A DNA stretch of 64,000 bases from a virus, in the IMG/VR virus record IMGVR_UViG_3300029989_000016, positions 3,349-67,348 of that record. One strand, written 5' to 3'. The notes under the pieces are model-generated. The model ran no database searches. It was given only the letters and a program-made list of their open reading frames with translations, and was not told the DNA's origin. The translations under genes were made by a program, and so were the position numbers. The first letter of the stretch is position 1; each line of letters opens with the position of its first letter. Shown here piece by piece: positions 41,050-42,502 of this stretch.

Positions 41050-41128
41050 TGGTGGGCCTCCCGTGAGTCGAACACGGCACCAACGGATTATGAGTCCGCT
41101 GCTCTAACCAAGCATGAGCTAGAGGCCC
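41050..41128 (-). tRNA. tRNA with CAT anticodon (Ile2/lysidine type most likely)
   Basis: GGGCCTC-TA-GCTC-ATGCTTGGTTA-GAGC-A-GCGGA-CTCATAA-TCCGT-TGGTG-CCGTG-TTCGACT-CACGG-GAGGCCC-ACCA. Confidence 0.92.
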
Positions 41129-41196
41129 ATCATGGATTGACGACAAGAAGTGAAGAGATTTATATGCGATGTAATCCGCTTCGGCATTCGTCAAAA

Positions 41197-41275
41197 GGTG
41201 CCGGTTACGTTATCCGGCGTCACTTTCGTGACCGTGCAGGGCTTCACCCGCTAAGTGCCGCGCCCTATGTTCGTC
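41197..41275 (-). ncRNA. C4 antisense-like structured RNA
   Basis: Three consecutive hairpins GCGGGTGAAGCCCTGC, GTCAC-GAAA-GTGAC, GCCGGATAACGTAACCGGC, resembling the C4 RNA family as recalled. Confidence 0.55.
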
Positions 41276-41305
41276 GCTGACGATGATGGTGCGCTACAAA
41301 TGCTC

Positions 41306-41382
41306 TGGCCCTCGTGGCGCGGAGTTAAACCGGCGTTGATCGACATTATCCGCCCTTGCGCAAGGAGAGGACTAACACGAGG
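41306..41382 (-). ncRNA. tRNA-like RNA (acceptor stem, T-like arm, CCA; no canonical D or anticodon arm)
   Basis: CCTCGTG/CACGAGG 7-bp stem plus G-CCA; CGG-TTTAACT-CCG. Confidence 0.6.
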
Positions 41383-41388
41383 ATGATC

Positions 41389-41465
41389 TGGTGGGCAATA
41401 AGGGATTCGAACCCCCTGTCACGCGGCATAGAAGACCGCTGTTCTATCCACTGAACTAATCGCCC
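41389..41465 (-). tRNA. tRNA-Arg (TCT)
   Basis: GGGCGAT-TA-GTTC-AGTGGATA-GAAC-A-GCGGT-CTTCTAT-GCCGC...GGGG-TTCGAAT-CCCT...ATTGCCC-ACCA. Confidence 0.88.
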
Positions 41466-41564
41466 ATATTCGGTGCCGCTTACCTTTATGCGGCGACTGG
41501 ATAAGGATTTTAACCCTCATAAAGCCGGTTCCCTATCGATTGGCCGTAAAGGGATGTACGGTTC

Positions 41565-41639
41565 TGGAGCGGGCTGTGAGGTTCGAACTCACGCATGGCG
41601 ACTTGGAAAGACTCAGCCTTACCACTTGGCGAAGCCCGC
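41565..41639 (-). tRNA. tRNA-Gly (TCC) with mismatched anticodon stem
   Basis: GCGGGCT/AGCCCGC-TCCA acceptor, GTGAG-TTCGAAC-CTCAC T arm, loop TTTCCAA, stem GAGTC/GTCGC has A.G and T.T mismatches. Confidence 0.75.
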
Positions 41640-41646
41640 AATAATC

Positions 41647-42008
41647 TGGGCAGGGGTAACGGCACAATAAAACCGCTCATAATTCACTCTAGGCCCATCC
41701 CGCGACAACCTAAAGCCTGCACGAAGAAACTGGGAGGGAATAACTAGCTCTTTGCCAAAGGCGCTCTAGCTTTGTTCTACAATCCACTTCCCCCGATTAT
41801 GGACTGATTCGCCGTTTTTACCGCCTCTTTAGCCCGCTAAGGCCCGCCATAACACGGTGCGGTTTCGTGACTAGGGCTATCCGAATATGCCTTTCGTCAG
41901 TTTGCTCCAGCGCTAGCCGAACAAACTTATTTGAAAATGGTTGAGTGGTTAGTTACTCCACATCGCAGCGACCACGCACTGTATCCTACTATTTTAGACG
42001 ATCAACCA
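41647..42008 (-). ncRNA. Run of four CCA-ended stem-closed RNA modules (41647-41720, 41731-41794, 41800-41901, 41938-42008)
   Basis: End-pairings GCAGG/CCTGC, GGGGAA/TTCCCT, ACTGA/TCAGT, TGGTTGA/TCAACCA, each ending CCA on the minus strand. Confidence 0.45.
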
Positions 42009-42096
42009 TTAGGCAGTTTCTATTTCATTCTAGCTACTCCCGACCGCGCCATGCCGAAGCCGAAAGAAGGATCACAAAATAGAAACTGCCTAATGG
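42006..42096. repeat. 20-bp perfect inverted repeat enclosing a 51-nt loop
   Basis: CCATTAGGCAGTTTCTATTT ... AAATAGAAACTGCCTAATGG. Confidence 0.9.
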
Positions 42097-42156
42097 CACC
42101 GGGGCGTGAATCGAAACACGCTATCCTCTGTAGGCTTACCATCGAACGACTCAGTG
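42094..42156 (-). ncRNA. Truncated tRNA-like RNA
   Basis: GCGTG-TTTCGATT-CACGC T arm, CACTGAG/CCCGGTG acceptor-like stem, CCA end; only about 63 nt. Confidence 0.55.
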
Positions 42157-42473
42157 GCCGCCCTCAATAAACAACGTACAGCGCACAGGCCGTTGTGCTT
42201 TCCCGGTACTGGGTGCCGCTGCTGGGAGTGCGCTTTCGCGTCTCACTGATGCCCGAAGGCAAAGATGCAGCGCCATTTGCTACTCGGACGTTTTACCTTT
42301 GTCAGCACGCCATTTACATCATGCTTTTCAAGTCGTCCGTTTCGATGCTGCGGGTGTTATCCCTAGTCCCTTTCCACGCTAGTCCGAAATGTTCGCAAAT
42401 TGGTGAGAGAGAAAGCCCAATCAGTTGCTACTAAGTCCAGCGGCGTCGTCCGTTTGCTGCACCGACGAGACGA

Positions 42474-42502
42474 ACTATATCGCGCACCCACTACCGAAGC
42501 AA
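42474..42502 (-). promoter_or_regulatory. Sigma70-type promoter for the RNA cluster
   Basis: TTGCTT-N17-TATAGT facing the tRNA/ncRNA array. Confidence 0.65.

Follow-up and report, generated by a model that had tools for sequence, protein, structure and literature searches.

Here we examined a 1.63-kb non-coding tract of a phage genome held in IMG/VR (record IMGVR_UViG_3300029989_000016), and our results indicate that it probably holds a transfer RNA (tRNA) array that was acquired by horizontal transfer in one PB1-like lineage and that contains, next to its tRNAs, tRNA-derived relics or tRNA-like RNAs. The window, by which we mean the whole stretch of DNA analysed, comprises 64,000 of the 67,348 bases of this virus record, which is complete and has direct terminal repeats. 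The array belongs to a known kind, the tRNA clusters of phages in which tRNA-like or degenerate tRNA units occur, and it is of interest for its PB1-like setting, for one tRNA top half that is cleanly kept and for a perfect hairpin that we cannot explain. Our verdict is based on single-sequence statistics and on the comparison with two other phage arrays, and the evidence for this locus is modest. An earlier reading of the same DNA (hereafter the sequence-only reading) had proposed that three tRNAs are interspersed in this tract with at least six tRNA-sized, CCA-ended modules of unrelated interior; its observation was confirmed in part and its interpretation found partial support, and we indicate below how its claims fared.

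Three intact tRNA genes, tRNA-Gly (TCC), tRNA-Arg (TCT) and a tRNA with anticodon CAT, were located by ARAGORN and Rfam at the places where the sequence-only reading had put them, each with its own CCA, and the same scans found none of its six modules (coordinates of all features are given in Table 1). All three exceed the gathering score of 29 of the Rfam tRNA family (RF00005) and form the full cloverleaf of a canonical tRNA. The intact tRNAs match codons that the phage uses appreciably (per 1000 codons, GGA 16.3, ATA 10.2 and AGA 2.5). The CAT tRNA showed 80-86% identity in blastn searches to genes annotated as 'tRNA-Met' in T4-like and jumbo phages, and it may be either a Met tRNA or a lysidine-type Ile tRNA reading AUA; its C4-G69 and C5-G68 pairs, together with its likeness to the tRNAs of T4-like phages, presumably point to Ile, provided that the criterion holds as we assume. 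Model alignments of tRNA-Gly (TCC) revealed two non-standard pairs in the anticodon stem, the remaining cloverleaf being intact. When peat metagenome runs were compared with this region, many contigs of other organisms aligned on the CAT tRNA at 80-95% likeness (41035-41130), so that the depth peak at these positions is due to a tRNA sequence shared with other organisms and not to this phage.

The evidence for tRNA-derived units came from two procedures that were applied to both strands of the window (2x64 kb). The first one was a top-half scan requiring an acceptor stem of 7/7 pairs, a directly stacked T stem of 5/5 pairs, a TT..A loop and a terminal (N)CCA, and the second one was a tRNA covariance model of our own (called R1) that was built from 14 phage tRNAs and run filter-free over these 128 kb. 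Ten sites had the stems that the top-half scan demands and five of these also carried CCA, these five being the three tRNAs (one of them twice, in a shifted register) and a 77-nt unit which we call unit A. Because the scan yields no other non-tRNA site with CCA, unit A is not a chance pairing, and it is the only non-tRNA site of this kind in the 2x64 kb. Unit A begins 6 nt past tRNA-Arg and presents seven Watson-Crick acceptor pairs out of seven, a stacked T stem of 5 bp from which one C bulges out, the loop TTTAACT and a G73 followed by CCA. The acceptor and the T arm enclose a body of 41 nt, which is the normal tRNA length; R1 cannot align this body, the hit (41309-41382, 5.4 bits) covering just the acceptor and the T arm, and Rfam gave no match for the unit at E<=10.

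The filter-free run of R1 ranked 42096-42156 as the top non-tRNA hit of the window with 11.8 bits, which corresponds to E = 0.18 for the whole window and to E = 0.0048 for the tract; the best decoy after it reached 8.5 bits. Detailed inspection of its alignment showed that 7 nt stand in place of 18 positions of the anticodon arm, that the acceptor stem has 6/7 pairs with an A.C mismatch, that a remnant of the D arm with GG is present, that the T arm has an 8-nt loop (TTTCGATT) with one base extra, and that CCA follows directly after the stem, out of register and with no discriminator. As far as the alignment allows us to judge, this segment appears to be a tRNA homologue bearing the disabling lesions of a pseudogene, and the lesions look like those of a decaying tRNA gene. 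The next minus-strand R1 hits in the tract were two further modules of the sequence-only reading, that is a weak cloverleaf-like unit (41937-42008) and unit A. The former has its CCA inside the 7-bp closing stem and its score of 6.1 bits is lower than that of the 8.5-bit decoy found elsewhere. Taking the two procedures together, at least two units (41306-41382 and 42096-42156) are clearly tRNA-derived. The idea that acceptor stem, T arm and CCA, which are read by RNase P and the 3'-end enzymes, have been retained while the decoding body has not is consequently borne out for at least these two units, as seen by the covariance model and the top-half scan. The accompanying argument, that random decay would hardly keep the ends and replace the middle, has force for unit A, with its perfect top half and foreign body, but not for 42096-42156, which looks like decay.

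The array appears to be specific to one lineage because tRNAs are absent from all nine related records that were searched whole (five IMG/VR genomes with a completeness of 98% or more, a 50% fragment, and Pluto, BCSR52 and Bas99 as named phages) and from all 15 related loci, in agreement with the earlier statement that PB1-type phages usually carry no tRNAs. Blastn searches with the tract against 50,697 phage records returned the CAT tRNA as the sole match. The flanking proteins P0001 and P0002 and the primase-helicase, when compared with IMG/VR, yielded one fragment at 40% identity, and P0003, encoded on a 5.3-kb contig, is a 69%-identical homologue of the upstream gene product. An alignment of the P0002 family, searched against IMG/VR, JGI metagenomes and GTDB genomes, reached at least 12 distant loci (34-48% identity), and among the matches listed none of these loci had a tRNA. 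Exact-pattern scans with the anticodon arm of tRNA-Arg gave 4 chance matches and no tRNA, and those with the anticodon arm of tRNA-Gly gave nothing useful.

Examination of the six proposed modules as a set gave a different picture from that of the individual units. All six do possess the end pairings ascribed to them and the terminal CCA. We scanned for spans of 55-110 nt whose 5' and 3' ends pair over 5 bp or more, G-U pairs included, and which are followed by CCA with 0-1 spacer base. The 1,402 non-tRNA nucleotides of the tract contained 11 such sites (7.85/kb), whereas the whole window had 433 on one strand and 454 on the other (6.8 and 7.1/kb), so that stems of at least 5 bp with CCA occur at the genome-wide rate. 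When at least 7 bp were required, the tract had 4 sites (2.85/kb) versus 1.16-1.30/kb in the window. The closing stem is just 5 bp long, and lacks a discriminator base, in four of the six modules. The folding z-scores relative to dinucleotide shuffles were -0.58 for unit A, -1.12, -0.24 and +0.65 for the modules 41647-41720, 41731-41794 and 41800-41901, respectively, -0.43 for the weak cloverleaf and +0.50 for the remaining module (42094-42156), versus -1.7 to -2.4 for the tRNAs. No module matched RF00005 or any other Rfam family at E<=10 in one wide and two narrow scans, and relaxed ARAGORN runs (80% thresholds, introns allowed, mitochondrial mode), which were uninformative, added none of the six. 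None of them is a canonical tRNA, R1 giving 11.8, 6.1 and 5.4 bits for three and less than 3.5 for the rest. The six modules as a set are therefore no more than what is expected by chance.

Three of these modules (41800-41901, 41731-41794 and 41647-41720) show no tRNA feature and no extra stability, their closing stems being of 5, 7 and 5 bp and their R1 scores of at most 3.5 bits, and it is likely, as part of the interpretation that we favour, that the modules other than the tRNA-derived units are spacer whose end pairings are at chance level. The claim of a string of modules stands in that the end pairings and the CCA exist and that two units are tRNA-derived, but it fails for the set, which is at the background stem rate and shows no excess of folding. 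The view that the tract holds six or more small-RNA modules unrelated to each other could not be upheld, given these three featureless modules and the background frequency of the stems.

The stem scan also identified a unit outside the list of the sequence-only reading (unit B), a 62-nt hairpin of 7 Watson-Crick pairs followed by T-CCA, which ends 4 nt ahead of tRNA-CAT, has no T arm and folds with a z-score of -1.27. Units A and B and the remnant 42094-42156 share the minus strand with the three tRNAs and are placed between them or next to them. In a test in which the spacers were shuffled 500 times and the tRNAs left in place, the tract proved to have five head-to-tail junctions of at most 10 nt against 0.75 +/- 0.94 in the shuffles (equalled by 1/500), and two units with stems of at least 7 bp touching tRNAs, A and B, against 0.04 expected (equalled by 1/500 as well). 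The three featureless modules tile head-to-tail up to tRNA-Gly with gaps of 5, 10 and 7 nt, and a chain of four was equalled in 1% of the shuffles (p about 0.01).

These data allow us to evaluate whether everything apart from the three tRNAs could be chance pairing in leader or spacer DNA, with no tRNA-derived units at all. The background frequency of stems with CCA and the fold z-scores near zero are what this explanation would predict, as are the lack of Rfam tRNA matches for the modules at E<=10 and the failure of ARAGORN at relaxed 80% thresholds to add any. It is nevertheless very improbable, and was already disfavoured, since the strict top-half scan gives unit A and no CCA-bearing decoy in 128 kb, filter-free R1 puts 42096-42156 first among the non-tRNA sites of the window, and two units with 7-bp stems abut tRNAs where 0.04 would be expected.

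The only strongly non-random fold in the tract was a 95-nt hairpin formed by a perfect 20-bp inverted repeat (42006-42025 and 42077-42096) around a 51-nt insert (-49.4 kcal/mol, z = -8.69, reached by 0/200 shuffles), which is squeezed in between the tRNA remnant on one side and the weak cloverleaf on the other. Our best guess is that it constitutes an RNase III site, a small palindromic insertion being the alternative. The stability of this structure (20/20 Watson-Crick pairs) and its position exactly between two tRNA-like units would also suit a scenario in which 41640-42643 is mainly a regulatory or processing leader, the hairpin being an RNase III site, a protein-binding element or a mobile palindrome and the tRNA-like parts being incidental. 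We consider this scenario quite unlikely: no T-run follows the hairpin on either strand, as a terminator would need, its arm has no second copy in the window and is absent from IMG/VR by exact-pattern scan, only chance-level matches to microRNA families were obtained for it, and unit A and the remnant would be left unexplained. Two spacers, one made of four hairpins in series (41195-41305) and the other one lying between tRNA-Gly and tRNA-Arg (41466-41564), fold about as well as the tRNAs, and no Rfam family was matched by either of them (41195-41305 being scanned at E<=10).

The sequence-only reading had gone further and viewed the tract as a purpose-built cassette, whose tRNA-like ends let RNase P and the 3' processing enzymes free small RNAs acting as decoys, sponges or antitoxin mimics. 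That two units retain just the acceptor, T-arm and CCA determinants speaks for it, and so do the head-to-tail tiling above that of the shuffles and the two spacers that fold about like tRNAs. RNase P is, in addition, described as processing substrates other than tRNAs, among them the precursors of C4 RNA, 4.5S RNA and tmRNA (PMC11143913). In the face of this, the closing stems of the set occur at background frequency, the stability of each of the six modules stays within that of its shuffles, three of them have nothing beyond an end pairing of 5-7 bp, no Rfam family was matched, and no gene for Ro60, RtcB or a CCA-adding enzyme, any of which might point to a partner, is encoded in the genome. 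Such a cassette is in our opinion unlikely.

A horizontally acquired array with relics or tRNA-like RNAs remains the explanation that we prefer, and several observations weigh against it. The tiling of the three featureless modules is unexplained if they are spacer, and the junction counts, which by exceeding the shuffles speak for the array, are to be taken as suggestive, this statistic having been picked after the data had been seen. The flawless top half of unit A beside an exact-length body that cannot be aligned argues against plain neutral decay of this unit, for which selection for processing or for an acceptor-end function may still be envisaged. The sequence was moreover identical throughout the tract in the peat DNA runs (n = 4), no RNA run was listed among those containing this stretch, and no homologous array was found in relatives by the blastn, protein, alignment and pattern searches.

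Regarding the expression of the array, the region 41011-42643 carries no coding signal in any frame. The codon-usage score, a log-likelihood trained on 21 long open reading frames (ORFs) of this phage, did not exceed 0.08 per codon in any of the six frames of 41000-42575, compared with 0.22 +/- 0.09 in true coding windows, and no minus-strand ORF exceeds 56 amino acids, so that the earlier claim of a region with no credible coding sequence was confirmed. Tblastn searches with the tract and the ORFs of the 15 related loci detected no pseudogene remnant better than E = 5e-4 in what is a tiny database, the upstream gene being the sole match. The sigma70-like promoter that had been proposed to face the array (TTGCTT-N17-TATAGT) found no support, its -35 hexamer fitting 3/6 bases and the promoter scan making no call there; the site bears a partial resemblance to the TATAAT-ACTTGTAT motif of the phage itself. 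Because the array is co-oriented with both neighbouring genes on the minus strand and no terminator-like site was seen between it and the downstream gene in the terminator and promoter scan, it probably belongs to a longer minus-strand transcript together with the flanking genes. Short complementarities between the tract and nearby genes (I5 at 14/15 and D7 at 15/17) are at chance level by our estimate.

Placing these results into a model, one PB1-like phage lineage would have gained horizontally a small tRNA array comprising three intact tRNAs (Gly-UCC, Arg-UCU and CAU), at least two non-decoding tRNA-derived units and some spacer, with the third, weak cloverleaf (41937-42008) and the CCA-ended hairpin (41133-41194) as possible extras. 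The array and the flanking minus-strand genes would be read as one precursor, which the tRNA maturation of the host would cut, RNase P acting at the 5' ends and endo- and exonucleases at the 3' ends. The intact tRNAs would then decode GGA, AGA and, if the CAU tRNA is of the lysidine type, AUA, and the tRNA-derived units would be relics or tRNA-like stable RNAs as in other phage clusters. We propose that the tight head-to-tail spacing of the units results from their having been, or still being, processed like tRNAs.

Table 1. Features of the tRNA array and comparable hits in two other phage arrays (positions are those of the window unless a locus is named)
Feature	Position	Strand	Basis or assessment
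Non-coding tract, 1.63 kb	41011-42643	minus	ORF list, codon usage, tblastn
tRNA with anticodon CAT, encoded ACCA	41050-41128	minus	ARAGORN; Rfam 55.4 bits
Unit B, 62-nt hairpin, 7 Watson-Crick pairs, then T-CCA	41133-41194	minus	Stem scan
Spacer, four hairpins in series	41195-41305	minus	Fold z -2.09, 6/200 shuffles
Unit A, 77-nt tRNA top half	41306-41382	minus	Top-half scan; R1 5.4 bits
tRNA-Arg (TCT), encoded ACCA	41389-41465	minus	ARAGORN; Rfam 57.6 bits; R1 70.6 bits
Structured Gly-Arg spacer	41466-41564	minus	Fold z -1.85, 10/200 shuffles
tRNA-Gly (TCC), encoded TCCA	41565-41639	minus	ARAGORN; Rfam 46.5 bits; R1 61.6 bits
Three proposed modules with no tRNA feature (41800-41901, 41731-41794, 41647-41720)	41647-41901	minus	Individually at chance level
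Weak cloverleaf-like unit	41937-42008	minus	R1 6.1 bits; insignificant alone
95-nt hairpin, perfect 20-bp inverted repeat, 51-nt insert	42004-42098	minus	Repeat search, folding
tRNA remnant with no anticodon arm	42094-42156	minus	R1 11.8 bits; top-half scan
Proposed promoter TTGCTT-N17-TATAGT	42474-42502	minus	Unsupported; missed by promoter scan
Unannotated tRNA-like hits, Acinetobacter phage ZZ1 (L022)	2467-2556, 2592-2664, 2835-2912, 3349-3419, 5144-5219, 5505-5588	tRNA strand	R1
Unannotated tRNA-like hits, Escherichia phage BF17 (L023)	561-630, 1563-1641	tRNA strand	R1

The phage that carries the array has a major capsid protein with 70% identity to that of Wifcevirus coliphages and with matches in hundreds of PB1-like phages, and a primase-helicase with less than 50% identity to anything among the 50,697 phage records. 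Near-identical DNA is present in peat metagenome runs. The tract is flanked on the minus strand by a gene of PHROG family 4783 upstream (42644-43132) and by a lipoprotein-like gene downstream (40645-41010), Pfam and PHROG scans of the neighbouring genes revealed nothing related to RNA, and genes for Ro60 (TROVE), RtcB and a CCA-adding enzyme were searched for in this genome and none was found. An ORF-poor and AT-richer region (43140-44100) separates the primase-helicase gene from the gene at 42644-43132 and has a repeated 24-nt motif, which is present in three copies at 43656, 43782 and 43846 and in two inverted copies, one near 43371 and the other near 43483. The minus-strand reading of this motif contains GTTGTATTTAAAG and is similar to TATAAT-ACTTGTAT, the early-promoter motif of the plus strand, and the repeats could serve as promoters or as iterons. 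We also observed that a Paraburkholderia phymatum chromosome contig (L024) bears at its end (354-794) a relative of the upstream phage gene with 34% identity and with no tRNA nearby, which hints that Paraburkholderia may hold a related prophage or phage remnant.

The presence of a tRNA array in a PB1-like lineage in which none of the nine checked relatives has a tRNA suggests a recent gain of translation-related cargo by a peat phage. The top-half scan and the filter-free model flagged non-decoding units here and unannotated units in two unrelated phage arrays, and such units may therefore be a common and overlooked companion of phage tRNAs. If they are selected, the question would be whether they feed or block the readers of acceptor ends, such as processing enzymes, synthetases and the defence toxins that act on CCA ends. 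CapRel and other toxSAS enzymes pyrophosphorylate the CCA ends of tRNAs, and MenT/AbiEii-type nucleotidyltransferases extend them. Conceivably, but with a very low probability in our view, unit A, and perhaps unit B and the remnant, would be selected acceptor-end decoys that host RNase P releases from the tRNA precursor, that expose nothing but a tRNA top half ending in a free CCA and that soak up CCA-end toxins, thereby sparing the decoding tRNAs. FaRel2 reportedly selects tRNAs by inspecting the acceptor stem (10.1101/2024.07.05.602228), and CapRel is described as acting on tRNA CCA ends in phage defence (PMC9712102).

Several known systems can be compared with this array. The C4 antisense RNA of P1 and P7, the YrlA-type Y RNAs and tmRNA are described as tRNA-like RNase P substrates of phages or bacteria (PMC11143913), and each of them was tried as an identity and rejected. 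YrlA gave unit B a weak 20.2 bits against a gathering score of 69, the match was not recovered in a narrower Rfam scan, and the single genome concerned (0/1) has no Ro60 (TROVE) gene; for tmRNA, ARAGORN finds none. For C4 RNA, none of the 4227 families of Rfam, among which the C4 family is presumably included, matched 41129-41388 at E<=10. The t-elements of plant mitochondria and the TMERs of murine gammaherpesvirus 68 are tRNA shapes that recruit RNase P or tRNase Z and set the ends of neighbouring RNAs (as described in PMC1920247 and PMC4838037), which is the mechanism that the sequence-only reading proposed, but they are eukaryotic or organellar and have no homology to the units found here. 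With regard to tRNA pseudogenes, 42096-42156 resembles them in its deleted anticodon arm, enlarged T loop, acceptor mismatch and CCA out of register, whereas unit A differs from them in that its top half is free of lesions and the adjoining body, although of exact tRNA length, is unrecognisable, a combination which uniform decay would not be expected to leave.

The tRNA cluster of phage T4 with its RNAs C and D (species 1 and 2), the closest textbook case, is similar to this array in that a single cluster encodes tRNAs together with small RNAs other than tRNAs, all on the same strand, the likeness being one of layout as seen in the DNA; in contrast to T4, the array sits in a PB1-like phage. 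T4 also carries tRNAs for Arg-UCU and Gly-UCC and a CAU tRNA, and its RNAs C and D are longer, whereas the units in this tract are tRNA-sized (61-77 nt). As in the T4 cluster, units A and B and the remnant are located on the same strand as the tRNAs, and a tRNA-like acceptor end is, in sequence terms, present in unit A and partly so in 42094-42156 (6/7 pairs, no discriminator). The function of RNAs C and D is still described as unknown (PMC9697503).

A further comparison is given by the arrays of Acinetobacter phage ZZ1 and Escherichia phage BF17, in which R1 produced 26 matches at E<=1, namely 14 annotated tRNAs (11 of these 14 having gone into the building of R1), eight unannotated hits on the same strand and four weak ones on the opposite strand. 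The eight same-strand hits lie between tRNAs and score 12-26 bits, and ARAGORN calls none of them. Many of these hits are a few bases away from annotated tRNAs, and several have an acceptor stem of 7/7 pairs, a T stem of 5/5 pairs and NCCA. They share with the units described here the strand, the head-to-tail arrangement with tRNAs and the top half with NCCA (for example, L022 5505-5588, 2835-2912 and 5144-5219, and L023 1563-1641), but they keep more of the cloverleaf, as their scores of 12-26 bits indicate when set beside the 5.4 bits of unit A and the 11.8 bits of the remnant, and the likeness between these phages and ours is one of architecture.

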